A DNA stretch of 64,000 bases, taken from contig CAXHJY010001456.1 of the NCBI GenBank assembly GCA_964016885.1, positions 1 to 64,000 of the forward strand, read 5' to 3'. Shown here piece by piece: positions 2,601 through 49,269 of the stretch. Position numbers and translations under genes: made by a program. The DNA is from Eledone cirrhosa (Eukaryota). The notes under the pieces were generated by a model, which saw only the letters and a list, made by a program, of their open reading frames with translations, searched no databases and was not told the DNA's origin. The stretch's first letter is position 1, and the number at the start of each line of letters is the position of its first letter.

Positions 2601-2843
2601 ATATATATAAACAACTATCTGGTTGTGGAACCAACCAACCAACCAGAAATTTATAAGTTTGTAGATTTGTAAATTTATAAATTTATAAATATATAATAAA
2701 TTGAAGTGAAAGCAACTGGTGCGTGTGTTTCTTATTGGCAACATGACCCTCCCAAAGTATAACAATATCGGTTTCAACACACGATTTCAGATAAAGAATC
2801 TTGCTAAACAAATTCAGAAACGAAATATCTATATATATATATA

Positions 2844-4408
<1,565 letters not shown>

Positions 4409-10819: not shown

Positions 10820-11409
10820 TGTTGTCCACTGTGGTCTCCCCACACGAAACAAAGTATCATGAAACTTGAAGCTCCTCAAAGGGCAATCACGAAAAAGATA
10901 GATGGCATGTCAGACCTTGACTACTGGGGTCGATTGGAAAACCTGAAACTTTACTCACTCCAACGTCGCCGTGAGCGTTATATTATCTGCATGATGTGGA
11001 AAATGTTCCATCATCACTGCCCAAATGATGTTGGCATCGCCTTCAAGATACACCCAAGGCTTGGGCCCCGTGCTATCCGTCCCATTCAAAAATCTAAATC
11101 GCAAATCATAACAACAATACGGCACAATTATTTCACCTCAATCGGCCCTGCTCTCTTCAACATCACACCAGGACACGTCAAAACAGAAACTGACCACACA
11201 AAATTCAAGAGGTCTTTGGACAAATTCCTCCAAGTAATCCCGGACAAACCACCGACACCCGGATATGTCTCCGCAAACAGTAATTCTCTTCTCGAATGGG
11301 CCATGGTGCCCAAATCCTGAATTGAAAGACTTCGCCAGGTGGTGCTATTAAGTTAGACATGGCCTGGGCCAATACTGGCCAAAACATTTCAAAGTTATTC
11401 AAAGTTATA
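10820..11409 (+). mobile_element. 5'-truncated copy of the CR1-group LINE, inside (TA)n
   Basis: Nearly identical to ~15273-15860, with the same 3' end (TTCAAAGTTA)x2. Confidence 0.93.
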
Positions 11410-13357: not shown

Positions 13358-15772
13358 ATGGATGATTTCTTCCTATCCCAACTAGTGCTCGAACCAACGA
13401 GGTGCCACAAAAACGTCCTAGACTTAATTTTCAGCAATCACACTGACAATATCCACAATATTGCAGTGGAGAAAACTCTACTCTCTGATCATGACATGGT
13501 TCTCTGTGATCTGAGATTCCACCGTCCAATATACAAACCCAATGTCATTTCTCCTGTCCATCCGTTTGACGCTATGGATTTCCACAATGCAAACTGGGAA
13601 GCGATCAGTCATGATCTTGCACATGTCGACTGGTCCTTCACGCACACTCATACACCCACTAACATCAAAAAGTCCTGGCAGACATTTGTGGACACTGTTA
13701 CAAACATATGTGCTAAACACACCCCATTAAGAACTATAAACAAATCTAAGAGCAGAATCCCTAGAAATAGATAAACGCTCATCAGAAAAATTAAGAGAAC
13801 GAACAAAAAAATCAAGAATCTGAAATACTGTCAGCAGCAACACATCAACTTGACTGCCATTTCATCACTAGAGATTAAAAAACATAACCTCCAAAACAAC
13901 ATAATGTCCCTCATCAACAATCAGAGAAGAGCTGAAGAGGCCTGGGCCATTGAGAAGATCAAACTCAATCCCAAAGTGTTCTTTTCATTTGCAAAAAAAC
14001 ACAAAATCACTGGCTCTACTGTTGGCCCTCTAATTGATGAAAATGGCACTCTTCAAGACAATGCTAAAACCATGGGTGAGATACTGCAGAAACAATACTG
14101 CTCTGTTTTCAGCAATCCTAATATGGCCGATCTGGGCTGTATCGGCGATGTTACTCCCCATTACACCTTATCGGACATAACGTTTGGCGCCCCTGATGTC
14201 TTGGCGGCAATAAAGGAAATCAAGCATAATTCAGCAGTAGGTCCCGATAGGTTCCCTGCTTGTGTCTTGAAGGCGTGTCAACACCAACTTGCATCTCCTC
14301 TTGCCAATCTGTCGCGGAACTCACTGGATGCTGGATATGTGCCAGAAAACCTTCTATCCCAGTCTGTTGTCCCAGTTTTCAAAAAGGGAAACAAATCCCT
14401 TGCCGTGAATTACCGTCCAATCTCACTCACCTCTCATATCATTAAGGTATTTGAGCGAGTGGTGAGATCGCGAATGACCCACTTCCTTGAGAGTAACAAT
14501 ATGCTGAACTCCAACCAGCATGGATTCCGTAATGGAAGGGATTGCCTGACGCAGCTACTGCATCACTTTGATGACATTTTGAGAGCCTTGGGAGAGGGTT
14601 CCAACACTGATGTTATCTACCTTGATTTCAGCAAGGCCTTTTACAGGGTTGATCATAACATTCTACTGCGAAAGCTGTCCAATATTGGTGTCACTGGAAA
14701 GCTGCTGCAGTGGATCAAGAGCTTCCTGTCAAACAGAACCCAACATGTTGTAGTTGAGGGAGTCAAATCAAGCCCAGCCAAAGTCAGTAGTGGGGTCCCA
14801 CAAGGCACTGTGTTGGGCCCACTTCTCTTCATCATCTATATTAATGACATCACTGACATCATCAAACACAGCAACATGAAAATTTTCGCTGATGATTCCA
14901 AGCTCCAAAAGGCCATCAATGGCGTGGATGACCGGATAAGCCTTCAGTCAGACATACTGGCTGTTACCCAATGGGCAGAAAAGAACAACATGTTACTGAA
15001 CGAAGACAAATTCGAACTGATCCACTTTGGAAAAGAGGATGCTCTGAAACTCCCGTACTCCCTTCCCTCCGGGGAAACTCTCGTGGCATCTAACAACATC
15101 AGAGACTTGGGAGTAACCGTGGACAGCAACATAAGCTGGACCACGCATATAAGCAGCAAAGTTGACATGGCCCGCAGAATGTGTTCCTGGATCCTCAGAA
15201 CCTTCCAGTCGAGAGATTCCCGCACCATTATCCTTCTCTTCTCTACTTTCGCCCGACCACACCTTGAATACTGTTGTCCACTGTGGTCTCCCCACACGAA
15301 ACAAAGTATCATGAAACTTGAAGCTCCTCAAAGGGCAATCACGAAAAAGATAGATGGCATGTCAGACCTTGACTACTGGGGTCGATTGGAAAACCTGAAA
15401 CTTTACTCACTCCAACGTCGCCGTGAGCGTTATATTATCTGCATGATGTGGAAAATGTTCCATCATCACTGCCCAAATGATGTTGGCATCGCCTTCAAGA
15501 TACACCCAAGGCTTGGGCCCCGTGCTATCCGTCCCATTCAAAAATCTAAATCGCAACTCATAACAACAATACGGCACAATTATTTCACCTCAATCGGCCC
15601 TGCTCTCTTCAACATCACACCAGGACACGTCAAAACAGAAACTGACCACACAAAATTCAAGAAGTCTTTGGACAAATTCCTCCAAGTAATCCCGGACAAA
15701 CCACCCACACCCGGATATGTCTCCGCAAACAGTAATTCTCTTCTCGAATGGGCCATGGTGCCCAAATCCTGA
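13358..15772 (+). pseudogene. LINE ORF2 (partial APE plus RT) with an in-frame TAA at 13772
   Basis: ORFs 13358-13774 and 13850-15772 share a frame. KAFYRV replaces the usual KAFD.V. Confidence 0.88.
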
Positions 15773-15856
15773 ATTGAAAGACTTCGCCAGGTGGTGCTAT
15801 TAAGTTAGACATGGCCTGGGCCAATACTGGCCAAAACATTTCAAAGTTATTCAAAG

Positions 15857-19950: not shown

Positions 19951-21074
19951 GACGTAAAATAAGAACATTTTTTAAAAAAATTAAAAAAAATCACTGATTT
20001 GTCGAGCAAACCTGCCAAAACCACTTCTAAAATTTTTTTTTGAGGTGTAAGTAGGCGTCTGTCATCTTACCATCCCATTCCTACTGACTAGCCTCTGTGT
20101 CACGTGATTGATTCTTTAGAATCGGCCAGATGACCAGTAGCAGTGAGAATTTTCAGTACCTGGAATCCAGTCCTCGATAGCTGTTCCATTTACCGAATTA
20201 TTATTATTTTTATGAGTCCCCAGTGTCCGCGCATTGCCTGGAGACTTGGCTGAGAATGATCTCCCTGAGGACGCAATGAAATTCTCAACAGTTCATTACG
20301 TAACTGTCTTTATCCCATTGCAGAAACTAATTAGTTGGAGTGAAAATTTAAGTAAGTAAGTTAATTTTTTTTTTTTTTTTTTTTAATTTTCTTATTTTAC
20401 GTCTTTTATATTATTGTTCTGCATCCTCCTGCATTGAACCACCTAGGTACTATGACATAACCTGTGTATTTGCTGGCATTAGCGTACATCTGTGCGCTTA
20501 TGTTAGTAGATATATTAAATTATCTATATTTATCTCCAAATCACTGATTTGTCGAGCAAACCTGCCAAAACCACTTCTAAAATTTTTTTTTTTTTGAGGT
20601 GTAAGTAGGCGTCTGTCATCTTACCATCCCATTCCTACTGACTAGCCTCTGTGTCACGTTTGATTCTTTAGAATCGGCCAGATGACCAGTAGCAGTGAGA
20701 ATTTTCAGTACCTGGAATCCACTCCTCGATAGCTGTTCCATTTACCGAATTATTATTATTTTTATGAGTCTCCAGTGTCCGCGCATTGCCTGGAGACTTG
20801 GCTGAGAATGATCTCCCTGATGACGCAATGAAATTCTCAACAGTTCATTACGTAACTGTCTTTATCCCATTGCAGAAACTAATTAGTTGGAGTGAAAATT
20901 TAAGTAAGTTAATTTTTTTTTTTTTTTTTTTTTTTTAATTTTCTTATTTTACGTCTTTTATATTATTGTTCTGCATCTTCCTGCATTGAACCACCTAGGT
21001 ACTATGACATAACCTGTGTATTTGCTGGTATTAGCGTACATCTGTTTGCTTATGTTAGTAGATATATTAAATTA

Positions 21075-21078
<4 letters not shown>
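19947..21078 (+). mobile_element. Tandem dimer of a ~552-bp retrozyme-like unit with a short inverted fragment at the left end
   Basis: 'aatcactgatttgtcgagc' occurs at ~19989 and ~20539. The leading 'aagacgtaaaataagaa' is the reverse complement of ~20390-20406. One HHR per unit. Confidence 0.8.
20261..20340 (+). ncRNA. Hammerhead with expanded stem II (second copy 20813-20892)
   Basis: CTCC-CTGA(G/T)GA-cGCAATG[37 nt including ACAGTT/AACTGT]CATTGCa-GAA-ACTAATTAGT-T-GGAG. Confidence 0.78.
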
Positions 21079-21143
<65 letters not shown>

Positions 21144-21170
21144 ATATATATCTATATATATATATATATA

Positions 21171-24100
21171 TTGGAATAAATGCTCTGAAATAGCGATATA
21201 TATGTGAGTATAGACATAGAATATTCGAAAATATTCTGTATGTTTATAATAAACATTTTGAAGACCTAATCGCTATAGAATAGAATACGTCACGTATTAC
21301 AATTAGATTCTCGATAAAAGCAAGGGAAGTAATCCACGCGTTTCATTCTTGTTAGAATTCATCAGGACTACATATCCAGTGCTTTTATCGAGAATGACAC
21401 AGCTAGAGACTTATAGAATACTTAGCTGTGTACTGGAACTGGTTTGAAAGAGCGGTTGCCGGTCCGGCAGAAATTAGAAATTGGAATAAATGCTCTGAAA
21501 TAGCGATATATATGTGAGTATAGACATAGAATATTCGAAAATATTCTGTATGTTTATAATAAACATTTTGAAGACCTAATCGCTATAGAATAGAATACGT
21601 CACGTATTACAATTAGATTCTCGATAAAAGCAAGGGAAGTAATCCACGCGTTTCATTCTTGTTAGAATTCATCAGGACTACATATCCAGTGCTTTTATCG
21701 AGAATGACACAGCTAGAGACTTATAGAATACTTAGCTGTGTACTGGAACTGGTTTGAAAGAGCGGTTGCCGGTCCGGTTCTGCCGGACCGGCAACCGCTC
21801 TTTCAAACCAGTTCCAGTACACAGCTAAGTATTCTATAAGTCTCTAGCTGTGTCATTCTCGATAAAAGCACTGGATATGTAGTCCTGATGAATTCTAACA
21901 AGAATGAAACGCGTGGATTACTTCCCTTGCTTTTATCGAGAATCTAATTGTAATACGTGACGTATTCTATTCTATAGCGATTAGGTCTTCAAAATGTTTA
22001 TTATAAACATACAGAATATTTTCGAATATTCTATGTCTATACTCACATATATATCGCTATTTCAGAGCATTTATTCCAATTTCTAATTTCTGCCGGACCG
22101 GCAACCGCTCTTTCAAACCAGTTCCAGTACACAGCTAAGTATTCTATAAGTCTCTAGCTGTGTCATTCTCGATAAAAGCACTGGATATGTAGTCCTGATG
22201 AATTCTAACAAGAATGAAACGCGTGGATTACTTCCCTTGCTTTTATCGAGAATCTAATTGTAATACGTGACGTATTCTATTCTATAGCGATTAGGTCTTC
22301 AAAATGTTTATTATAAACATACAGAATATTTTCGAATATTCTATGTCTATACTCACATATATATCGCTATTTCAGAGCATTTATTCCAATTTCTAATTTC
22401 TGCCGGACCGGCAACCGCTCTTTCAAACCAGTTCCAGTACACAGCTAAGTATTCTATAAGTCTCTAGCTGTGTCATTCTCGATAAAAGCACTGGATATGT
22501 AGTCCTGATGAATTCTAACAAGAATGAAACGCGTGGATTACTTCCCTTGCTTTTATCGAGAATCTAATTGTAATACGTGACGTATTCTATTCTATAGCGA
22601 TTAGGTCTTCAAAATGTTTATTATAAACATACAGAATATTTTCGAATATTCTATGTCTATACTCACATATATATCGCTATTTCAGAGCATTTATTCCAAT
22701 TTCTAATTTCTGCCGGACCGGCAACCGCTCTTTCAAACCAGTTCCAGTACACAGCTAAGTATTCTATAAGTCTCTAGCTGTGTCATTCTCGATAAAAGCA
22801 CTGGATATGTAGTCCTGATGAATTCTAACAAGAATGAAACGCGTGGATTACTTCCCTTGCTTTTATCGAGAATCTAATTGTAATACGTGACGTATTCTAT
22901 TCTATAGCGATTAGGTCTTCAAAATGTTTATTATAAACATACAGAATATTTTCGAATATTCTATGTCTATACTCACATATATATCGCTATTTCAGAGCAT
23001 TTATTCCAATTTCTAATTTCTGCCGGACCGGCAACCGCTCTTTCAAACCAGTTCCAGTACACAGCTAAGTATTCTATAAGTCTCTAGCTGTGTCATTCTC
23101 GATAAAAGCACTGGATATGTAGTCCTGATGAATTCTAACAAGAATGAAACGCGTGGATTACTTCCCTTGCTTTTATCGAGAATCTAATTGTAATACGTGA
23201 CGTATTCTATTCTATAGCGATTAGGTCTTCAAAATGTTTATTATAAACATACAGAATATTTTCGAATATTCTATGTCTATACTCACATATATATCGCTAT
23301 TTCAGAGCATTTATTCCAATTTCTAATTTCTGCCGGACCGGCAACCGCTCTTTCAAACCAGTTCCAGTACACAGCTAAGTATTCTATAAGTCTCTAGCTG
23401 TGTCATTCTCGATAAAAGCACTGGATATGTAGTCCTGATGAATTCTAACAAGAATGAAACGCGTGGATTACTTCCCTTGCTTTTATCGAGAATCTAATTG
23501 TAATACGTGACGTATTCTATTCTATAGCGATTAGGTCTTCAAAATGTTTATTATAAACATACAGAATATTTTCGAATATTCTATGTCTATACTCACATAT
23601 ATATCGCTATTTCAGAGCATTTATTCCAATTTCTAATTTCTGCCGGACCGGCAACCGCTCTTTCAAACCAGTTCCAGTACACAGCTAAGTATTCTATAAG
23701 TCTCTAGCTGTGTCATTCTCGATAAAAGCACTGGATATGTAGTCCTGATGAATTCTAACAAGAATGAAACGCGTGGATTACTTCCCTTGCTTTTATCGAG
23801 AATCTAATTGTAATACGTGACGTATTCTATTCTATAGCGATTAGGTCTTCAAAATGTTTATTATAAACATACAGAATATTTTCGAATATTCTATGTCTAT
23901 ACTCACATATATATCGCTATTTCAGAGCATTTATTCCAATTTCTAATTTCTGCCGGACCGGCAACCGCTCTTTCAAACCAGTTCCAGTACACAGCTAAGT
24001 ATTCTATAAGTCTCTAGCTGTGTCATTCTCGATAAAAGCACTGGATATGTAGTCCTGATGAATTCTAACAAGAATGAAACGCGTGGATTACTTCCCTTGC

Positions 24101-27100
24101 TTTTATCGAGAATCTAATTGTAATACGTGACGTATTCTATTCTATAGCGATTAGGTCTTCAAAATGTTTATTATAAACATACAGAATATTTTCGAATATT
24201 CTATGTCTATACTCACATATATATCGCTATTTCAGAGCATTTATTCCAATTTCTAATTTCTGCCGGACCGGCAACCGCTCTTTCAAACCAGTTCCAGTAC
24301 ACAGCTAAGTATTCTATAAGTCTCTAGCTGTGTCATTCTCGATAAAAGCACTGGATATGTAGTCCTGATGAATTCTAACAAGAATGAAACGCGTGGATTA
24401 CTTCCCTTGCTTTTATCGAGAATCTAATTGTAATACGTGACGTATTCTATTCTATAGCGATTAGGTCTTCAAAATGTTTATTATAAACATACAGAATATT
24501 TTCGAATATTCTATGTCTATACTCACATATATATCGCTATTTCAGAGCATTTATTCCAATTTCTAATTTCTGCCGGACCGGCAACCGCTCTTTCAAACCA
24601 GTTCCAGTACACAGCTAAGTATTCTATAAGTCTCTAGCTGTGTCATTCTCGATAAAAGCACTGGATATGTAGTCCTGATGAATTCTAACAAGAATGAAAC
24701 GCGTGGATTACTTCCCTTGCTTTTATCGAGAATCTAATTGTAATACGTGACGTATTCTATTCTATAGCGATTAGGTCTTCAAAATGTTTATTATAAACAT
24801 ACAGAATATTTTCGAATATTCTATGTCTATACTCACATATATATCGCTATTTCAGAGCATTTATTCCAATTTCTAATTTCTGCCGGACCGGCAACCGCTC
24901 TTTCAAACCAGTTCCAGTACACAGCTAAGTATTCTATAAGTCTCTAGCTGTGTCATTCTCGATAAAAGCACTGGATATGTAGTCCTGATGAATTCTAACA
25001 AGAATGAAACGCGTGGATTACTTCCCTTGCTTTTATCGAGAATCTAATTGTAATACGTGACGTATTCTATTCTATAGCGATTAGGTCTTCAAAATGTTTA
25101 TTATAAACATACAGAATATTTTCGAATATTCTATGTCTATACTCACATATATATCGCTATTTCAGAGCATTTATTCCAATTTCTAATTTCTGCCGGACCG
25201 GCAACCGCTCTTTCAAACCAGTTCCAGTACACAGCTAAGTATTCTATAAGTCTCTAGCTGTGTCATTCTCGATAAAAGCACTGGATATGTAGTCCTGATG
25301 AATTCTAACAAGAATGAAACGCGTGGATTACTTCCCTTGCTTTTATCGAGAATCTAATTGTAATACGTGACGTATTCTATTCTATAGCGATTAGGTCTTC
25401 AAAATGTTTATTATAAACATACAGAATATTTTCGAATATTCTATGTCTATACTCACATATATATCGCTATTTCAGAGCATTTATTCCAATTTCTAATTTC
25501 TGCCGGACCGGCAACCGCTCTTTCAAACCAGTTCCAGTACACAGCTAAGTATTCTATAAGTCTCTAGCTGTGTCATTCTCGATAAAAGCACTGGATATGT
25601 AGTCCTGATGAATTCTAACAAGAATGAAACGCGTGGATTACTTCCCTTGCTTTTATCGAGAATCTAATTGTAATACGTGACGTATTCTATTCTATAGCGA
25701 TTAGGTCTTCAAAATGTTTATTATAAACATACAGAATATTTTCGAATATTCTATGTCTATACTCACATATATATCGCTATTTCAGAGCATTTATTCCAAT
25801 TTCTAATTTCTGCCGGACCGGCAACCGCTCTTTCAAACCAGTTCCAGTACACAGCTAAGTATTCTATAAGTCTCTAGCTGTGTCATTCTCGATAAAAGCA
25901 CTGGATATGTAGTCCTGATGAATTCTAACAAGAATGAAACGCGTGGATTACTTCCCTTGCTTTTATCGAGAATCTAATTGTAATACGTGACGTATTCTAT
26001 TCTATAGCGATTAGGTCTTCAAAATGTTTATTATAAACATACAGAATATTTTCGAATATTCTATGTCTATACTCACATATATATCGCTATTTCAGAGCAT
26101 TTATTCCAATTTCTAATTTCTGCCGGACCGGCAACCGCTCTTTCAAACCAGTTCCAGTACACAGCTAAGTATTCTATAAGTCTCTAGCTGTGTCATTCTC
26201 GATAAAAGCACTGGATATGTAGTCCTGATGAATTCTAACAAGAATGAAACGCGTGGATTACTTCCCTTGCTTTTATCGAGAATCTAATTGTAATACGTGA
26301 CGTATTCTATTCTATAGCGATTAGGTCTTCAAAATGTTTATTATAAACATACAGAATATTTTCGAATATTCTATGTCTATACTCACATATATATCGCTAT
26401 TTCAGAGCATTTATTCCAATTTCTAATTTCTGCCGGACCGGCAACCGCTCTTTCAAACCAGTTCCAGTACACAGCTAAGTATTCTATAAGTCTCTAGCTG
26501 TGTCATTCTCGATAAAAGCACTGGATATGTAGTCCTGATGAATTCTAACAAGAATGAAACGCGTGGATTACTTCCCTTGCTTTTATCGAGAATCTAATTG
26601 TAATACGTGACGTATTCTATTCTATAGCGATTAGGTCTTCAAAATGTTTATTATAAACATACAGAATATTTTCGAATATTCTATGTCTATACTCACATAT
26701 ATATCGCTATTTCAGAGCATTTATTCCAATTTCTAATTTCTGCCGGACCGGCAACCGCTCTTTCAAACCAGTTCCAGTACACAGCTAAGTATTCTATAAG
26801 TCTCTAGCTGTGTCATTCTCGATAAAAGCACTGGATATGTAGTCCTGATGAATTCTAACAAGAATGAAACGCGTGGATTACTTCCCTTGCTTTTATCGAG
26901 AATCTAATTGTAATACGTGACGTATTCTATTCTATAGCGATTAGGTCTTCAAAATGTTTATTATAAACATACAGAATATTTTCGAATATTCTATGTCTAT
27001 ACTCACATATATATCGCTATTTCAGAGCATTTATTCCAATTTCTAATTTCTGCCGGACCGGCAACCGCTCTTTCAAACCAGTTCCAGTACACAGCTAAGT

Positions 27101-27307
27101 ATTCTATAAGTCTCTAGCTGTGTCATTCTCGATAAAAGCACTGGATATGTAGTCCTGATGAATTCTAACAAGAATGAAACGCGTGGATTACTTCCCTTGC
27201 TTTTATCGAGAATCTAATTGTAATACGTGACGTATTCTATTCTATAGCGATTAGGTCTTCAAAATGTTTATTATAAACATACAGAATATTTTCGAATATT
27301 CTATGTC

Positions 27308-27311
<4 letters not shown>
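21171..27311. mobile_element. Retrozyme-like array of a 310-bp unit: ~2 copies on - (21171-21777), then ~17.8 copies on + (21778-27311)
   Basis: 'tgccggaccg' recurs at 21781+310k for k=0-17. I noticed no differences between copies. One HHR motif per unit. Flanked by (TA)n. Confidence 0.93.
21855..21943 (+). ncRNA. Hammerhead motif of the 310-bp unit (20 copies), GUG triplet, extended stem I
   Basis: ATTCTCGATAAAAGCA..GTAGTC-CTGATGA-ATTCT/aaca/AGAAT-GAA-ACGCGT-G-GATTAC..TGCTTTTATCGAGAAT, with a perfect 16-bp outer helix. Confidence 0.82.
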
Positions 27312-27342
<31 letters not shown>

Positions 27343-27345
27343 ATT

Positions 27346-28768
<1,423 letters not shown>

Positions 28769-29473: not shown

Positions 29474-32400
29474 TCAGACAAATCAGATTCTATAATAAAT
29501 AGACGTACAGATTTGTTTTCTAACTGCCTGCATAAATTCCATAGGACTTTTCACAAAGTATACAGCTAATATTCAATTCTTTATCAATTTAGAATCTTTT
29601 CTCAAAGGCACATATACATACACCTCTTTAAAATATACCCATCTTCCTACCTTACTTCAAAAGGCATTATACACTCTATAATACTTGTTTACTCATTACC
29701 CTCATTCTATCTTCACCTTGTAAAATCCTTCATAACATATACATTTGTTTTTTTGACGTTAGAATATTCATCCGCAATTATTATTATTTTTTCTCTCTAT
29801 CATAAAACTTTTTAATCTCAATTTCATCCTTAATTTATTATTTTTTTCTCCCCATCAACGAACTCATTCTTAATACATATTAACTCTTTCTTCGCACATA
29901 TTATCAATTCCTTCAATATACAAACTTTAACTTCACATTATTTTTCTCAAATCCTTCTACACACAAACCTTAATAATTTTTTCTCTTCGTTAATTTTGAA
30001 ATTGCAACAATACTTATCAACATACACCTTTTTGACGTTAGAATATTCATCCGCAATTATTATTTTTTTCTCTCTATCTTCATACATAAACTCCCTCTCT
30101 TTCCTCGTACATATTTATATGGAACTCCTTTAACCATCAAAAGATGGTTAAAGGAGTTCCATATATTTTATTATGCGCATTTCAAAAACAAACATCATCA
30201 TGCAATAATATTTGTGTTTTCATCAGATAAAACAGGAGAACATGATATGAAGGCTAAAAAACACTTGTGGATAGTGCAGTTTTAAATCAACATATGAAAA
30301 GTGGTTTTAGATTGATGTGTGATATTGGGAAAAATATTTTATTTAGAGAGGGGGGGGGGGGAAGGATGAAAAGGGAAGGAGATGAGAGGGAGAGATGGGT
30401 GATAGAGAGAAAGAGATAGTTTTTATAACTGAGAGAAGATATATTGTTTTACATAGAGAGGTTGAAAACCGTTGGAAGATAATGTATAAATTAAAAGAAT
30501 TTTAAAATTAACGAAGGGAAAAATATGTACGAGGATAAAATATTTTATTTAGGGAGAGGGGGGGGGGGGTGGAAAGGATGAAAAAAGGGGAGGAGATGAG
30601 AGTGAAGGTGGAGAGGGAGAGATGGGTGATAGAGAGAAAGAGATAGTTTTTATAACTGAGAAAAGATATATTGTTTTACGTAGAGAGGTTGAGAACCGTT
30701 GGAAGATAATGTATAAATTAAAAGAATTTGAAAATTAACGAAGGGAAATTATGTATGAAGATAGAGAGAAAAAAATAATAATTGTAGATGAATATTCTAA
30801 CGTCAAAAAAAGAAATGTATGTATTGTGGCAATTTCAAAATTAACGAAGAGAAAAATTATTAAGGTTTGTGTGTAGAAGGATTTGAGAAAAATAATGTGA
30901 AGTTAAAGTTTGTATATTGATTGAATTGATAATATATGCGAATAAAGAGTTAATATGTATTAATAATGAGTTCGTTGATGGGGAGAAAAAAATAATAATA
31001 AATTAAGGATGAAATTGAGATTAAAAAGATTTATGATAGAGAGAAAAAATAATAATGATTGCGGATGAATATTCTAACGTCAAAACAAATGTTATGATTT
31101 TACAAGGAGAAGATAGAATGAGGGTAATGAGTAAACAAGTATTATAGAGTGTATAATGCCCTTTAAAGTAAGGTAGATGGGTATATTTTAAAGAGGTGTA
31201 TGTATATGTGCTTTTGAGAAAAGATTCTAAATTGATAAAGAATTGAATATTAACTGTATACTTTGTGAAAAGTTCTATGGAATTTATGCAGGCAGATAGA
31301 AAACAAATCTGTGCGTCTATTTATTATAGAATCTAGGTTAGAGATAATGGTAAATTTTTCATTTAGGCAGAGATTACAGATTTTAGATAGAGAGCTGTTC
31401 AAGTATGAGGATGCAGAAGAAATCTTCTTCCAAAAGATGGTATATTTAATGTTTTTGTCTTTTAAGGACCATATGAGTTCTGAGAGAGCAGTGTTAGTTC
31501 TTTTAAGTTTGTATTTGAAAGATGAATGATGATTATAGAGACGAGCTTTAAAAGAGGTGGAAGTGGAGCCAAAATAGGTGAAGGAATTGGTGCTAGTTAT
31601 AATTTTACATTCATAAATTAAGTTTTTATCGAGACAATGGTTGTTGAGAGGACATTTATTTTTAATGCGGCAGTTGCAATTAGAGAGATTATTAATGAGT
31701 GATCTAGTGTTATCTATAGAAGGAATTGGATTGGAGAAGTTGTTTGCGATAGGAATAATAGGAATAATAGTTTCTTGATTTAGAGTTGGATTATGAACAT
31801 TTAGCGAAGTCGTGTTTGACGTTGTATTTGGGTTTACAGAAGTTAGCCTAGGGTTTACAATGACGTCGGGAGTACTATTACTGTTATTATGAAATTCAAT
31901 ATTGGAAGGAAGATATTTAGTATTTAGTATTTTATTGTTGTGTTTAGAGATGATGTTGGAAATATTGGAGGATGTAGAATACGAAAATTTGATGGTGTGT
32001 TTGTTAAATATTTTACTATAGATATGTGAGGGAGGGAAGCATTTATTTAAGGCACTAAAAAATAGTTTAGGAATATTGTTATTAATAGAGATGGAGAAAG
32101 GAGCATTATACCAGATTATGTTTTTGTATCTAGGTCTTTTATTAAAATTATTGGAATGGTCATGATTAATTATTCTACTGTAAGTTTTTCTAGAATTTGT
32201 TTCTTTATTATATTTGATTTTATCTGGATAGCCGGCTTTAGAAAGTGCGTTATTATAGTAATTGGCGTTAGCATCAAAGATGTTTTTATTAGAAGATATG
32301 TTAGATATTCTATTTCCAATATTATTAACTATAGCATTCTTGATATTGGTAGGATGGTTAGATTTAAAGTTAACATAATTAAGGTTCTCATTGTTTTTAT

Positions 32401-33707
32401 GGTAAGGGTAATATAGGCCAGTGTCAAGATTAAGAGATACATCCAAGAAATTAGCTAGTTTGATACTATTATCAAATTCAATTTTTAGGTTATGTTGGTT
32501 AAAGAGATTACGTATATTGTTCTTAATAATATTAAGGTTAACTATATTGCAATTTAGGATAGTAAAGAGTCCATCGTCACGATAAATTCCACCGCGAAGT
32601 TGAGGAATTTTCCGACTCAAAGAGTTCAAAATGAAGATACCAATTAAATCAGTCAATTGGGATGAATCGGATGCTCCCATTGTGATGTCGAAGTTGTTAG
32701 AGGTATCGGTTCTGGTCCAATATTCGTTGTTGAACTCTAGGATGGTTTTACGTGCGGTGAGGATGATGTGAAGTTCATCTGTGGTGATGTCAGAATATTT
32801 AAGTGCGAAAGATAGAGCATTATTGAGAAGTGAAGGCGAAATGGAGGAATAGTAGCTGGCAATATCAAATTGAATAAATTTTAGTTTGTTTTTATTATCC
32901 AATTTGTTGAACCAGCCAATCACTTCAGAAGTACCAAACCATAAATTTAGGTTCAAAGAAGAGCAATTAGAACTAATCTGTGGGTTAATTCTATCCAAGA
33001 TGGCTTTACTAATTCCCTTCGTTAATTTTCAAATTCCTTTAATTTATACATTATCTTCCAACGGTTCCCAACCTCTCTATGTTAAAACAATATATCTTTT
33101 TCTCAGTTATAAAAACTATCTCTTTCTCTCTATCACCCATCTCTCCCTCTCCACCTTCACTCTCATCTTCTCCCCCTTTTTTTCACCCCCCCCCTCCCTA
33201 AATAAAATATTTTATCCTCGCACATATCCTCCCTTCGTTAATTTTCAAAATTTTTAATTTATACAGTATCTTCCAACGGTTTTCAACCTCTCTATGTAAA
33301 AAATATATCTCCTCTCAGTTATAAAAACTATCTCTTTCTCTCTATCACCCATCTCTCCCTCTCATCTCCTTCCCTTTTCATCCTTTCCACCCCCCCTCTC
33401 TAAATAAAATATTTTTCCCAATATCACACATCAATCTAAAACCACTTTTCATATGTTGATTTAAAACTGCATTATCCACAAGTGTTTTTTAGCCTTCATA
33501 TCATGTTCTCCTGTTTTATCTGATGAAAACACAAATATAATTGCATGATGATGTTTGTTTTTGAAATGCGCATAATAAAATATATGGAACTCCTTTAACC
33601 ATCTTTTGATCTTATATTATGCATACTCCAGTCCTACAAACTGTAGAGTGCTTCTTATCCGATATCTGCATTGCTTTATTTACTACAATAAAACTCACCT
33701 CCTACAT
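29474..33707. mobile_element. PLE family G composite: + pLTR fragment (29474-30138), - copy (30139-33005), inverted + pLTR and tail (33006-33707)
   Basis: Direct and inverted matches to 18480-19870. ORF on the minus strand. Confidence 0.9.
31250..32998 (-). CDS. 5'-truncated PLE polyprotein (RT plus GIY-YIG), Naiad-like motif pattern
   Basis: IQFDIASYY, ITMGASDS, IYRDD, NFLDV, KFSYS, CNCR..CPL..CL, LIYEC..YFGST..R..H and CNLC..EK..N.R..CLH. No internal stops. The clade assignment is from motif recall only. Confidence 0.88.
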   Translation of the reverse strand: MDRINPQISSNCSSLNLNLWFGTSEVIGWFNKLDNKNKLKFIQFDIASYYSSISPSLLNNALSFALKYSDITTDELHIILTARKTILEFNNEYWTRTDTSNNFDITMGASDSSQLTDLIGIFILNSLSRKIPQLRGGIYRDDGLFTILNCNIVNLNIIKNNIRNLFNQHNLKIEFDNSIKLANFLDVSLNLDTGLYYPYHKNNENLNYVNFKSNHPTNIKNAIVNNIGNRISNISSNKNIFDANANYYNNALSKAGYPDKIKYNKETNSRKTYSRIINHDHSNNFNKRPRYKNIIWYNAPFSISINNNIPKLFFSALNKCFPPSHIYSKIFNKHTIKFSYSTSSNISNIISKHNNKILNTKYLPSNIEFHNNSNSTPDVIVNPRLTSVNPNTTSNTTSLNVHNPTLNQETIIPIIPIANNFSNPIPSIDNTRSLINNLSNCNCRIKNKCPLNNHCLDKNLIYECKIITSTNSFTYFGSTSTSFKARLYNHHSSFKYKLKRTNTALSELIWSLKDKNIKYTIFWKKISSASSYLNSSLSKICNLCLNEKFTIISNLDSIINRRTDLFSICLHKFHRTFHKVYS

Positions 33708-34004: not shown

Positions 34005-35937
34005 TGCAAAAGTTTTATTTAAGATTGTTGGGTTACAACGAGTAAATATTTTATAACTGATATAAAAGCACTCAACAGTTTCTGGAGTAGGTTTACGATA
34101 TTAAACAAATGGAAACTATATTTATAAAACCATATTTATTTCGTTATATATATTTCTGGGATATCATATTAAATATATGGTATGCCTTCCTCAGACAAAA
34201 TACAATACATAAGCTGTTTTATAAATAATTATTGACATACCTTATAATAATGCAACTTCCATTTAAAAAGTTGATTTGGTAGTGAAACTGTTATGACAGT
34301 TATATAGAAAGAAAAACGAAGATGAGAAGAAGAAGATGAAGAGATGTATGTAAATAAAAATAAAAAAAAGAAGAAGATGAAGAGATGTATGTAAAGAAAA
34401 ACAACAGAGCGAGATAGAGAGACAAGGAGATATGGGAGAGAGAAATACATTGAGGAAGTGAAAAAATATAGTAAGCAGCTTTTGGACAGATGATCATCGT
34501 ATATGTGAGAGGTTAAGGAGGGAAGGGATACAGTTAAACTAGCCGACACATAAATCACGTCCAGTGTATAGGAGAAAAAGAAAGAAAGATGATATATTTA
34601 AAATATATTAAAAATATATTATGTCTCATCCATTTGAATTATCAATTTTTATGAATTAGGTATTATAATGTAAATATCAGTATTCATGAATGAGACAAAT
34701 ATCCATAATGTGTGAAAAAATCTTTTGAATAAATTTTTAAGCTGGATAAACTTCTATAATAAATATAAGAGCATTTGTAGAATAAGTTTTGATTGATTTC
34801 TGCTAAATAAGGCTTGGTGAACAATCTTGGTTTTGTTTGCTTTTGATTCTGATTTTATGTGACCGATATGCGTGGCATACTATGTTCTCTTGCGTCCCTA
34901 GATACTCTGTGGAGTCACGAAGATATTCTTGGCATTTTTAATTTTTAATATTGATATCTGTTGTCTACTCTATGCTTGATCGATAATCATGCAAGTGAGG
35001 CTGGAATGTTATTTTAAATGTTAATGTATATCTTATATATTTTATGTCTATATATATGTATATATGTATGTAAATGTATGTAGGGTGGAATCTTTTGTAA
35101 CGCAATGAAGTTTTTCATGAAATATAAGAATCTGTGGAGCATATCACATAGGTTCACAGGTGTGTCTATATTTATCAACTTTAATTTGAGATAACCTTCT
35201 CTTTTCTCTTTTTTTCTCTTTTTCTTTTTTCACGAGAATGCATATATACTTATGTTTGAAGTTTTATCTCAGATTTTGCTTATAGACCTAAGAATTTTTA
35301 AACTAAGCATGTGGTCATTTTGTTCACACATTATGGATATGTGTCTCATTCATGAATACTGATATTTACATTATAATACCTAATTCATAAAAATTGATAA
35401 TTCAAATGGATGAGACATAATATATTTTTAATATATTTTAAATATATCATCTTTCTTTCTTTTTCTCCTATACACTGGACGTGATTTATGTGTCAACTAG
35501 TTTAATTGTATCCCTTCCCTCCTTAACCTCTCACATATACGATGATCATCAATCCAAAAGCTGCCTACTATATTTTTTCACTTCCTCAATGTATTTCTCT
35601 CCCATATCTCCTTGTCTCTCTATCTCGCTCTGTTGTTTTTCTTTACATACATCTCTTCATCTTCTTCTTTTTTTATTTTTATTTACATACATCACTTCAT
35701 CTTCTTCTCATCTTCGTTTTTCTTTCTATATAACTGTCATAACAGTTTCACTACCAAATCAACTTTTTAAATGGAAGTTGCATTATTATAAGGTATGTCA
35801 ATAATTATTTATAAAACAGCTTATGTATTGTATTTTGTCTGAGGAAGGCATACCATATATTTAATATGATATCCCAGAAATATATATAACGAAATAAATA
35901 TGGTTTTATAAATATAGTTTCCATTTGTTTAATATCG

Positions 35938-36924: not shown

Positions 36925-39627
36925 TTAATTGTAAGTTGTGATGTTGCTGTTCCACTCATATTTTCTATTTAATTTTGGTTTTAATTCTTTTATGCTTACT
37001 GCCTCTGTAATTTGCCTAAACATTGCGTCTTTTCTGTGTGTGGATTCTATTTTTATTTCTATGCTCTCTAATCTACCCCTGTGTTCTATCTTAGCATGTT
37101 GGTATAGTACAGATGATTCTTTATTATCTTGAAGGTCTCGACAGTGTTCATTTATCCGTTCCCCTATACTACGAGCTGTCTCACCTATGTACACTATACT
37201 TTTGTTTCTACATTGTCCTTCAGTACATCTTATGCTATACACTACATTTCTAGTTTTACAGTTAATGTGGGGGCTTATTTTACAGGTTATACATTTCTTA
37301 TCTATACATGAGGGTCTTTGGAACGGGTATGTCTTGCTAATAAGTGTTTTTACGGAGGTACCTGGTCTTTCTACTATCTTAATATTGAGATTATGTTTAT
37401 TTAGGGCCCTTCTAAATTTATAGGCTAGTTCGCCTCTAGGGGTTGTATTGATGAACATTACACTCTGGTATTTATTGCTATCATACCATGAGTTTATTCT
37501 ATTGGCCTTGTTCCTAGTTCTTTCTATTCTATTCCAAAATTTGCTCCTATACAAGGGGCGGGTCCCATTTATGTCATTATTTATGATTTTTTCCCATTTG
37601 GTTCTGGCTCCTTTATGCACTCTGATTCTATCTCTCTGATTGTAGCCAGAGAACTGCATACGGTGGATGAAGTGTTGTATGTGTCTCTCTAGTTCTTCAG
37701 GGTTGCACATGCGGGACACATTTCTCATCACCCGTACCAAATCCGCAATCAGTATGTTGATTTTGGTATGGTCCGAAGTGGCCGAGTTTCGGTGGATCAG
37801 ATGTTTGGAAGTCATGGGTTTGGCATAAAGGGAATGGAGGATTTGTTTTTGGTTGTTAATGGTATCTAACCAGAGCTCTGTGTCTAGTACAGGTAATTGA
37901 TGATTGAGGTCTCTACTTGGGTAGTCTATAGTAACTCTAATGCTCTGGTGGATGGAGTTTGCTATTTGCTGGATGCTTTCCATTGTGTTTTTCTCTAGTT
38001 CCTGACTGTTCTTTAGTGGGGGTGTCTTAACTACGATGTTTATATCATCTACGTAGCGGGAGTACATTATCAGGGTTAAGCTGTCTTCTAATAGTTCATT
38101 AAGTTTTTGTTTAAGTCTACTGTCCCACCATACCATGAATAAGTTAGCTATGTCGCCTGCAATGCTAACACCAATGGCTGCTCCTTCCTCTTGGGCATAT
38201 GTTTTACCATTAAATTTGAACATATGTTCCTTAAGGGTTAATTTTATGCTGGCCCCTACCGCATGTGCAATCATTTTCTTCAGTTCATCGTGGTTTTCGG
38301 CTGTCCGTATGGCTCTGGTCCACCCGTTCCATCTATCTGTGTGGGTTTTCTTGGCCATTGAGGTAATGGTAGGTGGTCTGCCTCTTGCTGGTCTTGTAGG
38401 GCACAGGTTGCTAAGGTCATAAGTGTCTAGGTAACTATTACTATGGGTAAGCTTAAGTAGAAGTCCCAGCTCACTGGTATCAATCCCACGGAACTCAACT
38501 TTGCTCTCGCTGATCATTTCTACGCATTTCTCCACACCAAAATCCACGTCAATAGATGGATACAGGGACACAACATCCATACTGCCTATTATGCAGTTTG
38601 TTAGGTCCCCAAATCGGTTACCCGCGCCGATTTTCCTGAGGAGGTCCTCCGTGCTGTCACACACATCTGGGGACATCTCAATGATGGGGCGTATGATCAG
38701 GGAGAGGAAGTAGGACAGTCTGTAGTTACTAGCAATGTTAGCCCCACAGACCGGCCGTGTTGGTGGTCCCGCGACAGGGTCCCAGCCCGTTTTATGGTCT
38801 TTTCGAAGCCCATACAACGCCGGCACGTCATTGTTCCAGGCCTGGAAGTTGTTGGCAGTCCTTTTGTTGGGCTGCATTATATTCGTCCACATCACCATAT
38901 GGGCATTGAGGGCTTTTTCTCTATCCTCATGCTCCTGTGGTGTTACCTCTCTTGTGTTAGTGATGTGGGGTTGCATTGCCTGGATGTAGTTTGGCAGGCT
39001 GTCAACCGACATTCTGCCAGACTTGTCTGTTGGAAAACATGCTATCTCTCCATTACGCGAGCGCTGCATGAGCTTACGCAAGCCATTTGCAGATTCTTCT
39101 CCCAGTTGCTGGGCCTCTATTCTATTATGCTTATTGCTATACTGTTCTATAATATTTCTAAGTTCGGATTTAGCTATACTAAATTGTGCTTCTGTTTGTT
39201 CATCGACCTGCGACGGCAACTGCGTGCGTTTGTTAAATGGCAAAGTCGTGGCGTGGACTCGTCGTAGGTCGAATGATTTATCGGAGGGGTTATAAAACGG
39301 AGAGTTCCAGGCTGCTGCTTTATGTGTACTAGTGCTATTATTATTGTTAGTTGTGTTGTTTCTATTTCTATTTCCACCAACAGCCTCATGGTTGTTTCTA
39401 TGTCTCTCATAATTACTCCTGTCTCTTTCCACTGGCTCAATGTTATTATCTACCCTATTTTGTGTGTCTGTGTGTTCGTCTTGGTTATTCTCTTTGTCCT
39501 TAGTCTCCCATCTCCTTTTCCTTTTAATCCTATTACTTTCTCTTATTTCTCTGATTTCTGTGCTACTGTCATTACTTGTTTTCTGTGTCTGTGTGTTTGT
39601 TAAGATTGTGGTGTTGGTGAGAGGCAT
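36925..39627 (-). CDS. PLE RT-GIY-YIG polyprotein, 900 aa open; the N-terminal part continues in another frame to ~40140
   Basis: DKSG, YVDD and GIY-YIG motifs are intact. The upstream frame has LPPKFA..EIEK..KLRW, followed by an Asn-rich repeat where the frame shifts. Confidence 0.9.
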   Translation of the reverse strand: MPLTNTTILTNTQTQKTSNDSSTEIREIRESNRIKRKRRWETKDKENNQDEHTDTQNRVDNNIEPVERDRSNYERHRNNHEAVGGNRNRNNTTNNNNSTSTHKAAAWNSPFYNPSDKSFDLRRVHATTLPFNKRTQLPSQVDEQTEAQFSIAKSELRNIIEQYSNKHNRIEAQQLGEESANGLRKLMQRSRNGEIACFPTDKSGRMSVDSLPNYIQAMQPHITNTREVTPQEHEDREKALNAHMVMWTNIMQPNKRTANNFQAWNNDVPALYGLRKDHKTGWDPVAGPPTRPVCGANIASNYRLSYFLSLIIRPIIEMSPDVCDSTEDLLRKIGAGNRFGDLTNCIIGSMDVVSLYPSIDVDFGVEKCVEMISESKVEFRGIDTSELGLLLKLTHSNSYLDTYDLSNLCPTRPARGRPPTITSMAKKTHTDRWNGWTRAIRTAENHDELKKMIAHAVGASIKLTLKEHMFKFNGKTYAQEEGAAIGVSIAGDIANLFMVWWDSRLKQKLNELLEDSLTLIMYSRYVDDINIVVKTPPLKNSQELEKNTMESIQQIANSIHQSIRVTIDYPSRDLNHQLPVLDTELWLDTINNQKQILHSLYAKPMTSKHLIHRNSATSDHTKINILIADLVRVMRNVSRMCNPEELERHIQHFIHRMQFSGYNQRDRIRVHKGARTKWEKIINNDINGTRPLYRSKFWNRIERTRNKANRINSWYDSNKYQSVMFINTTPRGELAYKFRRALNKHNLNIKIVERPGTSVKTLISKTYPFQRPSCIDKKCITCKISPHINCKTRNVVYSIRCTEGQCRNKSIVYIGETARSIGERINEHCRDLQDNKESSVLYQHAKIEHRGRLESIEIKIESTHRKDAMFRQITEAVSIKELKPKLNRKYEWNSNITTYN

Positions 39628-40164
39628 TGAATGCGTGTGTTGTTGTTGTTGATGTGTGTTGTTGTTGATGTGTGTTGTTGTTGATGTGTGTTGTTGTCTC
39701 CGTGTGTGTTATCGTTGTTGTGTGTGTTATTATTGTTGTTTGTGTCTGCGTGTCTGTTGTTGTTGTATCTGGGTATGTTGCTATTGTTGTTGTTGTTGGT
39801 GTGTGTGTTGTTATTGCTGTTTGTGTCTGCGTGTCTGTTGTTGTTGTATCTGGGTATGTTGCTATTGTTGTTGTTGTTGTTGATGTGTGTGTTGTTGTTA
39901 TTGTTGTTTGTGTCTGTGTGTCTGTTGTTGTTGAGATGTGTGTTGTATATGTGTGTGCGTATATTGTTGCTTTTGTTTTTGATGCTCCAGCGTAGTTTTG
40001 TAAATGATTTTTCTATTTCTGACAGACAACTAATCATATTTACCTTCTTGAATGTCGCAAATTTGGGTGGCAGACATAACACAGACATTTCATTATTATC
40101 TATTTCCGTGTTTCCATAAATGTTGGTATTTTCGTTGTTGAACCAAAAGACCATAAGACCAAAA

Positions 40165-42037
40165 TACCATAAAACGGGCTGGGACCCTGTCGCGGGACCA
40201 CCAACAAAGCCAGTCTGTGGGGATAACATTGCTAATAACTACAGACTGTCCTACTTCCTCTCCCTGATCATACGCCCCATCATTGAGATGTCCCCAGATG
40301 TGTGTGACAGCACGGAGGACCTCCTCAGGAGAATCGGCGCGGGTAACCGATCTGGGGACCTAACAAACTGCATAATAGGCAGTATGGATGTTGTGTCCCT
40401 GTATCCATCTATTGACGTGGATTTTGGTGTGGAGAAATGCGTAGAAATGATCAGCGAGAGCAAAGTTGAGTTCCGTGGGATTGATACCAGTGAGCTGGGA
40501 CTTCTACTTAAGCTTACCCATAGTAATAGTTACCTAGACACTTATGACCTTAGCAACCTGTGCCCTACAAGACCAGCAAGAGGCAGACCACCTACCATTA
40601 CCTCAATGGCCAAGAAAACCCACACAGATAGATGGAACGGGTGGACCAGAGCCATACGGACAGCCGAAAACCACGATGAACTGAAGAAAATGATTGCACA
40701 TGCGGTAGGGGCCAGCATAAAATTAACCCTTAAGGAACATATGTTCAAATTTAATGGTAAAACATATGCCCAAGAGGAAGGAGCAGCCATTGGTGTTAGC
40801 ATTGCAGGCGACATAGCTAACTTATTCATGGTATGGTGGGACAGTAGACTTAAACAAAAACTTAATGAACTATTAGAAGACAGCTTAACCCTGATAATGT
40901 ACTCCCGCTACGTAGATGATATAAACATCGTAGTTAAGACACCCCCACTAAAGAATAGTCAGGAACTAGAGAAAAACACAATGGAAAGCATCCAGCAAAT
41001 AGCAAACTCTATCCACCAGATCATTAGAGTTACTATAGACTACCCAAGTAGACACCCCAACAATCGATTACCTGTACTAGACACAGAGCTCTGGTTAGAT
41101 ACCATTAACAACCAAAAACAAATCCTCCATTCCCATTATGCCAAACCCATGATTTCCAAACATCTGATCCACCGAAACTCGGCCACTTCGGACCATACCA
41201 AAATCAACATACTGATTGCGGATTTGGTACGGGTGATGAGAAATGTGTCCCGCATGTGCAACCCCGAAGAACTAGAGAGACACATACAACACTTCATCCA
41301 CCGTATGCAGTTCTCTGGCTACAATCAGAGAGATAGAATCAGAGTGTATAGAGGAGCCAGAACCAAATGGGAAAAAATGGTAAATAATGACATAAATGGG
41401 ACCTGCCCCTTGTATAGGAGCAAATTTTGGAATAGAATAGAAAGACTAGGAACAAGGCGAATAGAATAAACTCATGGTATGATAGCAATAAATACCAGAG
41501 TGTAATGTTCATCAATACAACCCCTAGAGGCGAACTAGCCTACAAATTTAGAAGGGCCCTAAATAAACATAAACTCAATATTAAGATAGTAGAAAGACCA
41601 GGTACCTCCGTAAAACACTTATTAGCAAGACATACCCGTTCCAAAGACCCTCATGTATAGATAAGAAATGTATAACCTGTAAAATAAGCCCCCATATTAA
41701 CTGTAAAACTAGAAATGTAGTGTATAGCATAAGATGTACTGATGGACAATGTAGAAACAAAAATATAGTGTACATAGGTGAGACAGCTCGTAGTATAGGG
41801 GAACGAATAAATGAACACTGGCGAGACCTTCAAGATAATAAAGAATCATCTGTGCTCTACCAACATGCTAAGATAGAACACAGGGGTAGATTAGAGAACA
41901 TAGAAATAAAAATAGAATCCACACACAGAAAAGATGCAATGTTTAGGCAAATTACAGAGGCAGTAAGCATAAAAGAATTACAACCAAAATTAAATAGAAA
42001 ATATGAGTGGAACAGCAACATCACAACTTACAATTAA
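40165..42037 (+). pseudogene. Frameshifted, 5'-truncated family A polyprotein
   Basis: Frameshifts near 41445 and 41615 relative to sister copies. Confidence 0.88.

Positions 42038-47651: not shown

Positions 47652-47657
<6 letters not shown>
45757..47657 (-). mobile_element. PLE family K, 5'-truncated in the RT, with an inverted ~85-bp pLTR end (47573-47657); HHR at 45967-46007
   Basis: The ORF is a divergent relative of family A. Terminal sequence is repeated in inverted orientation. Confidence 0.92.
46281..47565 (-). CDS. Truncated PLE RT-GIY-YIG ORF (family K)
   Basis: EGAAIGVSIAGD, YVDD, LPVLD and VVYSIRC..YIGET. The first ~19 codons of the ORF-track call come from the inverted pLTR. 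Confidence 0.88.
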
Positions 47658-47730
<73 letters not shown>

Positions 47731-48133
47731 CAATATTAAATAAATGGAAACTATATTTATAAAACCATATTTATTTCATTATATATATTTCAGGGATATC
47801 ATATTAACAATATGCTATGCCTTCCTCAGACAAAATACAATATAAACAGTTGAATTGGCACTGCCAATTCAACTTTTCAAATACAAGTCGATGTTGTTAC
47901 GGTATGTCAAATCTATTTATCTATAAAACTGTTTATATTGTATTTTGTCTGAGGAAGGCATAGCATATTGTTAATATGATATCCCTGAAATATATATAAT
48001 GAAATAAATATGGTTTTATAAATATAGTTTCCATTTATTTAATATTGTAAATATACTCCAAATACTTGTCGAGTGCTTTTATATCAGTTATAAATATTTA
48101 CTAGTTGTAACCCAACAATTTAAATATAACTTT

Positions 48134-49232: not shown

Positions 49233-49269
49233 TATACACATATACACATATACACATATACACATATAC

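Follow-up and report, generated by a model that had tools for sequence, protein, structure and literature searches.

A two-armed tandem array in Eledone cirrhosa belongs to an abundant family of 310-nt non-LTR retrozymes, metazoan elements of a known class, and is a very young copy. Its sequence and end geometry suggest that the enzyme of a Penelope-like element (PLE) likely produced it in a single step from one, probably circular, RNA unit.

Array layout and unit structure

The window, by which we mean the whole 64,000-nt stretch of contig CAXHJY010001456.1 that was analysed, contains the array at 21170-27311. A 310-nt unit is repeated there 17.85 times on the plus strand and 1.96 times on the minus strand, which makes 19.8 units in total, a count that refers to the array as assembled. 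When both arms were compared, we found zero differences across 6,142 bases, matching the initial annotation, which had described about 18 plus and 2 minus invariant copies (Table 1). The arms meet in the most GC-rich stretch of the unit, with a 5-nt offset between them and without microhomology. Fold-back self-priming was considered as a source of the inverted arm and rejected, as there is no pairing at the junction and the arms of a sister array of 469-nt units meet at different unit phases.

Table 1. Positions in the window of the arms, target halves and ribozyme features of the 310-nt array
Feature	Position	Strand	Detail
Direct arm, 17.85 identical 310-nt units	21778-27311 (5,534 nt)	+	17 full units + 264 nt, 0 differences
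Inverted arm, 1.96 units	21170-21777 (608 nt)	-	exact match to plus-arm unit
Arm junction, back-to-back	21777/21778 (feature 21765-21795)	.	within TGCCGG/CCGGCA hairpin
(TA)n target half, left	21062-21171	.	
(TA)n target half, right	27308-27393	.	
16-bp helix around hammerhead, first plus unit	21855-21943	+	unit 78-93 with 151-166
Type I hammerhead, first plus unit	21879-21921	+	recurs every 310 nt to 27149-27191 (18 copies)
Type I hammerhead, inverted arm, G17	21329-21371	-	
Type I hammerhead, inverted arm, G17	21639-21681	-	
Cleavage-site nucleotide N17, first plus unit	21915	+	G in array, A in runs X1, X4, X5
39-nt 'tail' between the two outer ends	22042-22080	+	unit 265-303, placed on first plus unit

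If the assembly had collapsed or homogenised a repeat, or taken up a fold-back chimera, perfect identity together with an inversion would be expected. We consider such an artefact very improbable: the flanks of the array are unlike each other on the two sides, with no mirror image; its arms end at different unit positions, a pattern common to six other blocks; and the tandem unit junction is present in three public runs.

The unit has a GC content of 34.8% and folds at -81 kcal/mol (z = -5.67), with 0 of 100 shuffles as good. All of the hairpins named in the initial annotation were located, at unit positions 4/11, 42/68 and 236/248, as was the 16-bp helix at 78/151. The unit had also been described as free of ORFs; read as a 310-nt circle, it has no stop-free stretch longer than 59 codons and no Met-to-stop frame longer than 31 codons.

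End geometry and the (TA)n target

Both arms face outward. Measured along the unit, their outer ends are separated by 39 nt, as in the 'tail' of Penelope elements. The direct arm stops at unit position 264 (the short end), where it overlaps the target by 4 nt (TATA), and the inverted arm at about 303 (the long end), with a 2-nt AT overlap. Microhomology at the ends had been reported before, and the overlaps are indeed there; as proof of priming they are weak, since 72 of 310 unit phases would give at least 2 nt and 12 of 310 at least 4 nt. Across the window, of ten hand-picked two-armed blocks (this array included), seven combine a short outer end with a long one at a separation of 39-92 nt. 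In all five arm pairs for which the scan detected hammerheads on both arms, the arms face outward.

PLE insertions characteristically show inverted 5' copies, tails and a (TA)n target (PMC8557442). The length of the tail equals the spacing of two RT start sites, and in vitro cutting and extension take place on both strands of the target (PMC11167929). The array has the inverted arm, the 39-nt offset and (TA)n on both sides, and PLE-type RT/GIY-YIG frames were found in the window. The paired short and long ends would lend in vivo support to two-sided PLE priming, so far an in vitro observation, and the inverted arm is best read as a putative second cDNA whose priming began on the opposite side of the cut. 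Within the window, comparison of the unit with PLE terminal repeats gave no significant likeness beyond the hammerhead core; terminal-repeat homology to PLEs is described for a minority of retrozyme families (Li et al. 2026). A TATACTC...GAG(T)GC motif in the unit tail and in Hydra-type terminal repeats was discarded, as 294 to 1,947 of 2,000 shuffles did equally well across six tails.

The very unequal length of the arms could also reflect a PLE insertion of a two-armed copy of only one to two units, after which the plus arm grew by recent DNA amplification through unequal exchange or slippage. Growth of this kind likewise yields letters common to all copies, and local amplification has been proposed for retrozymes (Li et al., bioRxiv 10.64898/2026.07.22.740005). 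It would, however, have had to proceed through several rounds with no mutation or indel (upper 95% bound 5e-4 per base), whereas the diverged tandem array at 59.4-64 kb is just 87-91% alike, and the minus arm is already nearly two units long. We regard later amplification as quite improbable.

The hammerhead, its cleavage site and the 310-nt family

By motif scan, every unit carries a type I hammerhead (18 plus and 2 minus copies), in one polarity only. Its parts are a stem I of GTAGTC/GATTAC, a CTGATGA core, a 5-bp stem II, GAAA and a palindromic CGCG stem III. Searching the array sequence against Rfam gave no match at the gathering score and only a sub-threshold match to HH9 (score 22.2 bits, cut-off 52, E 0.007); miRNA and ctRNA matches at the arm junction were set aside as due to the palindrome only. 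A search of metagenome, viral and prokaryote collections with the hammerhead pattern gave 0 matches.

The cleavage triplet is GUG in 20 of 20 ribozymes of the array and so departs from NUH, a retrozyme trait, whereas the family's triplet in runs X1, X4 and X5 is GUA, which fits it. At position 21915, X1 has A at a depth of 492,062 of 492,062 (39 contigs), and X4 and X5 have A in one contig each. The array differs from the family majority at three letters, A>G at N17 plus a T>A and a T>C, present in 20 of 20, 20 of 20 and 19 of 19 covering copies. These letters are private in the sense of being absent from X1, X4 and X5, and other G17 arrays may exist in the genome. The chance that one of three differences lands on N17 is about 1%, and on any of 12 core positions 11%. 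With G at this site the predicted pairing probability of C3 with G17 is 1.0, versus 0.0 with A; because of this predicted pair, the new array would self-cleave poorly. The array is a likely impaired, G17 copy of an NUH-bearing family. In tertiary-stabilised hammerheads, G17 is reported to slow cutting 8- to 100-fold, with ligation still possible (PMC3884650). As such hammerheads are not dead, G17 need not postdate ligation.

Run X1, probably from another individual or a close species, holds 517 contigs of the 310-nt family at depths of up to about 5.8e5, a figure for depth and not for copy number. Among the ends listed, TA-joined ends fall at unit positions 277 (9 contigs) and 308, and the best supported of them, 277, matches neither end of the array (264, 303). 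Since TA-joined ends occur in X1 at several unit phases, the family is dispersed. In a sample of about 1/100 of a Hi-C run, X23, there were 0 reads on the unit.

Words of the unit are widespread: 20 runs, under 18 organism codes and from 17 studies, contain 0.45-0.72 of them, and X4 and X5 each have one closed 340-nt contig without the X1 majority variant at 21892. None of the listed runs with the unit's words is an RNA run, and this has no bearing on expression. This distribution might be expected if the unit were an exogenous viroid-like replicon of many organisms that had integrated here, but X4, X5 and X6 also carry the unrelated 469-nt family at similarly low depth (about 3-90, versus 1e5-5e5 in X1), which points to traces of abundant host repeats or to related hosts. 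This co-occurring host repeat argues strongly against a free viroid-like replicon, and the hammerhead is found in one polarity only; we judge an exogenous origin extremely improbable.

Editing-like changes and the proposed origin of the array

The sister 469-nt array has eight sites at which at least 90% of X1 depth differs, and at seven of these the RNA-strand change is A>G, an excess with P 4e-4 even at p = 0.25. All eight are in both tandem copies, and the five that the inverted arm covers are there as well. The 469-nt family appears, from these patterns, to bear RNA-editing-like scars. In the 310-nt array, one of three differences fits sense-strand A-to-I editing, while the T>A and T>C do not. 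The family's A at N17 lies in UAG, and the array unit has four other TAG among its 93 A. Systematic RT misreading at the ligation junction is an unlikely source of G17, as it would give G in many family copies and X1 has none. We put A-to-I editing, as against plain DNA mutation or a copying error, at about even odds for the N17 change. A literature search covering openly accessible main texts found no report of editing scars in retrozymes or of two-armed retrozymes; the supplements of PMC7229834 and of the Li preprint may bear on this negative.

Together, the end geometry, (TA)n target, nearby PLE ORFs, dispersed ends in X1 and scars of the 469-nt family agree with what the initial annotation had proposed, a recent single insertion of a retrozyme mobilised by a PLE. 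That reading is supported for the retrozyme, the insertion and the PLE, but it had overlooked the likely impairment by G17 and the probable second-cDNA origin of the inverted arm.

A circular RNA template is, on the sequence evidence, the likeliest reading. A source array would be transcribed, cut by paired hammerheads and ligated into a 310-nt circle. The A at the ligated cut site, in UAG and beside the long helix, may then be edited to inosine. A PLE endonuclease would cut (TA)n, and both 3' ends would prime cDNA from start sites 39 nt apart. One reverse transcriptase would circle about 18 times and the other about two, both halting at the GC hairpin, after which the two cDNA ends would be joined and the gaps filled. 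That both ends of one DNA cut primed the copying of one RNA circle is, we believe, somewhat probable. The fuller version, in which ADAR edits the circle-junction A to inosine and so bars re-cutting, and two PLE RTs read this same molecule 18 and 2 times, is more speculative and in our view rather doubtful.

The same two-ended insertion could instead have used a long linear transcript of a G17 mother array that escaped self-cleavage. Cleavage is impaired by G17 (PMC3884650), two of the three array differences are not of the editing type, and in vitro hammerhead-dead RNA inserts normally and uncut RNA is the main substrate of the PLE enzyme (PMC11167929), which favours a linear template over a circle. 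Yet a linear template requires a mother with at least 18 identical G17 units, itself in need of explanation, and no G17 contig is found in X1, X4 or X5. In addition, both 469-nt units carry one identical set of seven A>G changes, whereas editing of a linear multimer would act on each unit separately. We think a linear template unlikely.

The proposal that PLEs reverse-transcribe retrozyme circles in rolling-circle fashion dates back to 2014, and the cited reports do not demonstrate it (PMC4209133, PMC7229834). Arrays such as this one make it testable by genome sequence alone. An editing mark common to all units and to both arms would report a single template molecule, and a mark at N17 would be especially telling because N17 is the ligation junction of the circle. 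If the fuller version with ADAR editing of the circle junction is true, host A-to-I editing would mark retrozyme circles and also inactivate the ribozyme of the genomic copies descended from them.

The element class itself is ordinary. Metazoan non-LTR retrozymes are described as tandem units of 150-450 bp with GC below 50%, non-coding, strongly self-paired and with one type I hammerhead per unit and PLEs nearby (PMC7229834; bioRxiv 10.64898/2026.07.22.740005). The array resembles them in unit size, GC, self-pairing, hammerhead and lack of coding capacity, and in having dispersed copies beside PLE frames. Arrays described for the class reach 62-mers and 300 units (PMC7229834; Li, Clavereau and Pollet 2026), and the same sources propose rolling-circle copying by PLEs and show retrozyme circles by northern blot, whereas our array is known from DNA. 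It differs in the two-armed layout with PLE-type paired ends and the fixed change at position 17, neither of which figures among the retrozymes described in the cited portions of those sources. With the G17 hammerhead variants (Kalweit and Hammann 2013, PMC3884650) it shares a G at N17 and the proposed C3-G17 trap; those variants are engineered and tertiary-stabilised, whereas the present one is natural, fixed in one array, minimal in stem III and of predicted activity only. Like PLEs, including the Hydra clade, the array has a (TA)n target, an inverted 5' copy, a tail of 30-40 nt between two RT starts, and a hammerhead with a palindromic stem III of the kind that works as a dimer (PMC8557442, PMC11167929, PMC4209133). 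Unlike an autonomous PLE, it has no RT/GIY-YIG ORF, and about 20 repeats of a 310-nt unit make up the entire element. By analogy, it would work like PLE cargo and not like an autonomous PLE.

Layout of the 310-nt array and geometry of its ends

The array of 310-nt units (310 array) is real in the assembly. As the initial annotation had counted, it holds about 20 invariant units, roughly 18 plus and 2 minus, with no differing base, and (TA)n borders it on both sides; that it is an assembly artefact we regard as very improbable. The claimed hammerhead, of type I, was found by motif scan in 20 copies (18 plus, 2 minus); Rfam backing is weak (HH9, 22 bits against a cut-off of 52). Its stem III is the palindromic CGCG, and hammerheads with a palindromic stem III are reported to act in pairs (PMC4209133). 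The unit has a GC content of 34.8%, folds much more stably than shuffled sequences (z = -5.67) and, as annotated, lacks an open reading frame: the longest frame from Met spans 31 codons, even when read as a circle.

The two arms lie back to back with their RNA 3' ends facing outward, so that each is the expected product of cDNA primed at one end of a cut target. A distance of 39 nt separates the outer ends, which fall at positions 264 and about 303 of the unit. The inner ends, offset by 5 nt with no microhomology where they meet, lie at the most GC-rich hairpin of the unit, which is where stalling of both enzymes would have placed them. Overlaps with the flanking (TA)n, TATA at one end and AT at the other, are present as noted initially but are weak evidence, as 12 and 72 of the 310 phases, respectively, would overlap by at least as much.

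Ten inverted blocks were hand-picked from a self-comparison of the window. In seven, a short outer end is paired with a long one at a distance of 39-92 nt; of the remaining three, one ends at the same site on both sides, one contains an unrelated insert and one lacks a shared block. The offset is 54-92 nt in the five pairs of terminal-repeat-like segments (Table). Wherever the scan detected a hammerhead on both arms of a pair (five pairs), the arms point outward. Hallmarks of Penelope-like elements (PLEs) include an inverted 5' copy and a tail of 30-40 nt (PMC8557442). A PLE enzyme studied in vitro cuts both strands and extends them, with two start sites that set the tail (PMC11167929).

These observations are consistent with a model, which we consider probable, in which PLE enzymes, primed on either side of a single (TA)n cut, copied one 310-nt RNA, going about 18 rounds in one arm and about 2 in the other. 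The annotated idea of a PLE reverse transcriptase (RT) circling a small RNA template remains the most likely reading, from both cut ends, but the circle itself is only probable. A short insertion followed by local DNA amplification appears improbable.

An altered cleavage nucleotide and the sister 469-nt array

Public sequencing runs differ from the window at five sites of the unit. Two (21892 and 21900) are polymorphic in X1, a run probably from another individual or close species, and these differences are absent from runs X4 and X5. At 21816, 21915 and 22042, the differing letter occupies X4, X5 and 97-100% of X1 depth, and no copy in either arm lacks the window letter. N17, the hammerhead cleavage-site nucleotide, lies at 21915: the family reads GUA and the 310 array GUG, with no G among X1's 39 contigs. 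The chance that one of the three changes lands on N17 is about 1%, and on any of 12 core positions 11%.

The family A sits within UAG, a preferred ADAR context. As N17 would be the junction base of such a circle, a G read in each of 20 passes is consistent with A-to-I editing of the junction A after ligation, an origin that may be right or wrong with about equal chance. The changes at 21816 and 22042 are neither A>G on the RNA strand. As the main alternative, a long uncut transcript of a mother array already bearing G17 could have been the template; this is plausible in that a PLE enzyme prefers uncut RNA in vitro (PMC11167929), yet we think it unlikely. The predicted fold pairs G17 fully with C3, the pairing proposed as a trap in published G17 hammerheads (PMC3884650). 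As engineered G17 ribozymes still cleave, 8- to 100-fold slower (PMC3884650), the ribozyme of the 310 array is likely impaired, not necessarily dead.

The window also holds a sister two-armed retrozyme, the 469 array, whose outer ends are 70 nt apart. Of its 27 variable sites, 19 were set aside as polymorphic, which left 8 where 90% or more of the X1 depth departs from the window. On the RNA strand, seven of these are A>G; none of the seven lies in CpG, and the 5' neighbour is U in four, A in two and G in one. This shows an RNA step in the sister family. All 8 changes occur in both tandem copies, and the 5 covered by the inverted arm are common to both arms, suggesting that one template unit fed both. 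For the 310 array, which itself has only one A>G change, this support is indirect.

Dispersal and neighbourhood

Fractions of 0.45-0.72 of the 310-unit words are present in 20 public runs, none recorded as RNA. X1 holds the unit on 517 contigs, at a summed depth (not a copy number) of up to about 5.8e5, with a tandem junction and TA-joined ends at positions 277 and 308. It is clear that this family is abundant and dispersed. X4 and X5, under other organism codes, each contain one closed 310-family contig (depth 26 and 34). We considered and rejected a free replicon: the unrelated 469-nt family also occurs, at low depth, in X4, X5 and a further run, X6, which makes traces of abundant host repeats, or related hosts, the better explanation of the signal. 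At 21892 the low-depth X4 and X5 agree with the window, not with X1's majority, so diluted X1 is not their source.

Retroelements lie nested in (TA)n across the window. Its four PLE-type RT/GIY-YIG frames are candidate mobilisers; three copies are 96-98% alike, one of them open for 927 codons, and a second family among such frames is about 70% alike. The CxCX5C linker of a further PLE frame is described for the Hydra clade (PMC8557442), and hammerhead-bearing repeats at 30164 and 33512 flank that frame. The motif scan detected several further hammerhead families in the window, and a hammerhead-like motif with a variant core lies near 28358-28385, after the truncated PLE end. The 616-nt tandem array is young and has no recognised ribozyme (no hammerhead by motif scan, and nothing in Rfam with E of 1 or below). 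The diverged array at 59396 contrasts with the invariant 310 array.

Table. Features of the window
Positions	Strand	Feature	Basis or remark
875-2278		PLE-type RT/GIY-YIG frame	weak Pfam match, below curated cut-off
2822-3203		inverted pair, terminal-repeat-like, in (TA)n	short and long outer end
4411-7362		tandem array, 616-nt unit, 4.8 copies	about 99.7% alike; starts at (TA)n
10821-11404		3' fragment of LINE-type copy	99.5% identical; ends in (TA)n
13360-15856		young LINE-type RT copy (RT 13775-15772)	Pfam RVT_1, E 1.5e-30; ends in (TA)n
19992-21076		two-copy tandem, unit about 550 nt	97% alike; neighbours 310 array on the left
21170-21777	-	310 array, inverted arm, exact 608-nt copy	0 differences
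21778-27311	+	310 array, direct arm, 17 full units + 264 nt	0 differences
27394-28579		5'-truncated GIY-YIG end of another PLE	adjoins 310 array on the right
31250-33028	-	PLE frame, 592 codons, CxCX5C linker	motif from translation; no Pfam match
34006-35937		inverted pair, terminal-repeat-like, in (TA)n	short and long outer end
36925-39708	-	PLE-type RT/GIY-YIG frame	weak Pfam match, below curated cut-off
40120-42037		PLE-type RT/GIY-YIG frame	
44204-45476		469 array, 469/470-nt hammerhead unit	2.1 tandem copies + 316-nt inverted arm
46281-47693		PLE-type RT/GIY-YIG frame	
47731-48135		inverted pair, terminal-repeat-like, in (TA)n	short and long outer end
48294-49233		inverted pair, terminal-repeat-like, in (TA)n	short and long outer end
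51500-52361		two-copy tandem, 517-nt unit	96% alike; hammerhead-like cores at 51563 and 52080
57025-57420		inverted pair, terminal-repeat-like, in (TA)n	short and long outer end
59396-64000		diverged tandem array, about 875-nt period	87-91% alike; inner ~200-nt period

Relation to known retrozymes

A search of open-access literature (main texts) found no report of a two-armed retrozyme layout or of editing scars in retrozymes. As an element the 310 array is ordinary and belongs to a known class: its tandem units match those of metazoan non-LTR retrozymes, as initially proposed, in size and composition and in carrying one hammerhead each. Such retrozymes are described with arrays of up to 62 units and circular RNAs, and their rolling-circle route via PLEs is put forward as a proposal (PMC7229834); they have also been tied to PLE terminal repeats, with arrays of up to 300 units (bioRxiv 10.64898/2026.07.22.740005). 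A 20-mer is thus not in itself unusual, and the 310 array offers a clean test case for the long-proposed rolling-circle copying step.
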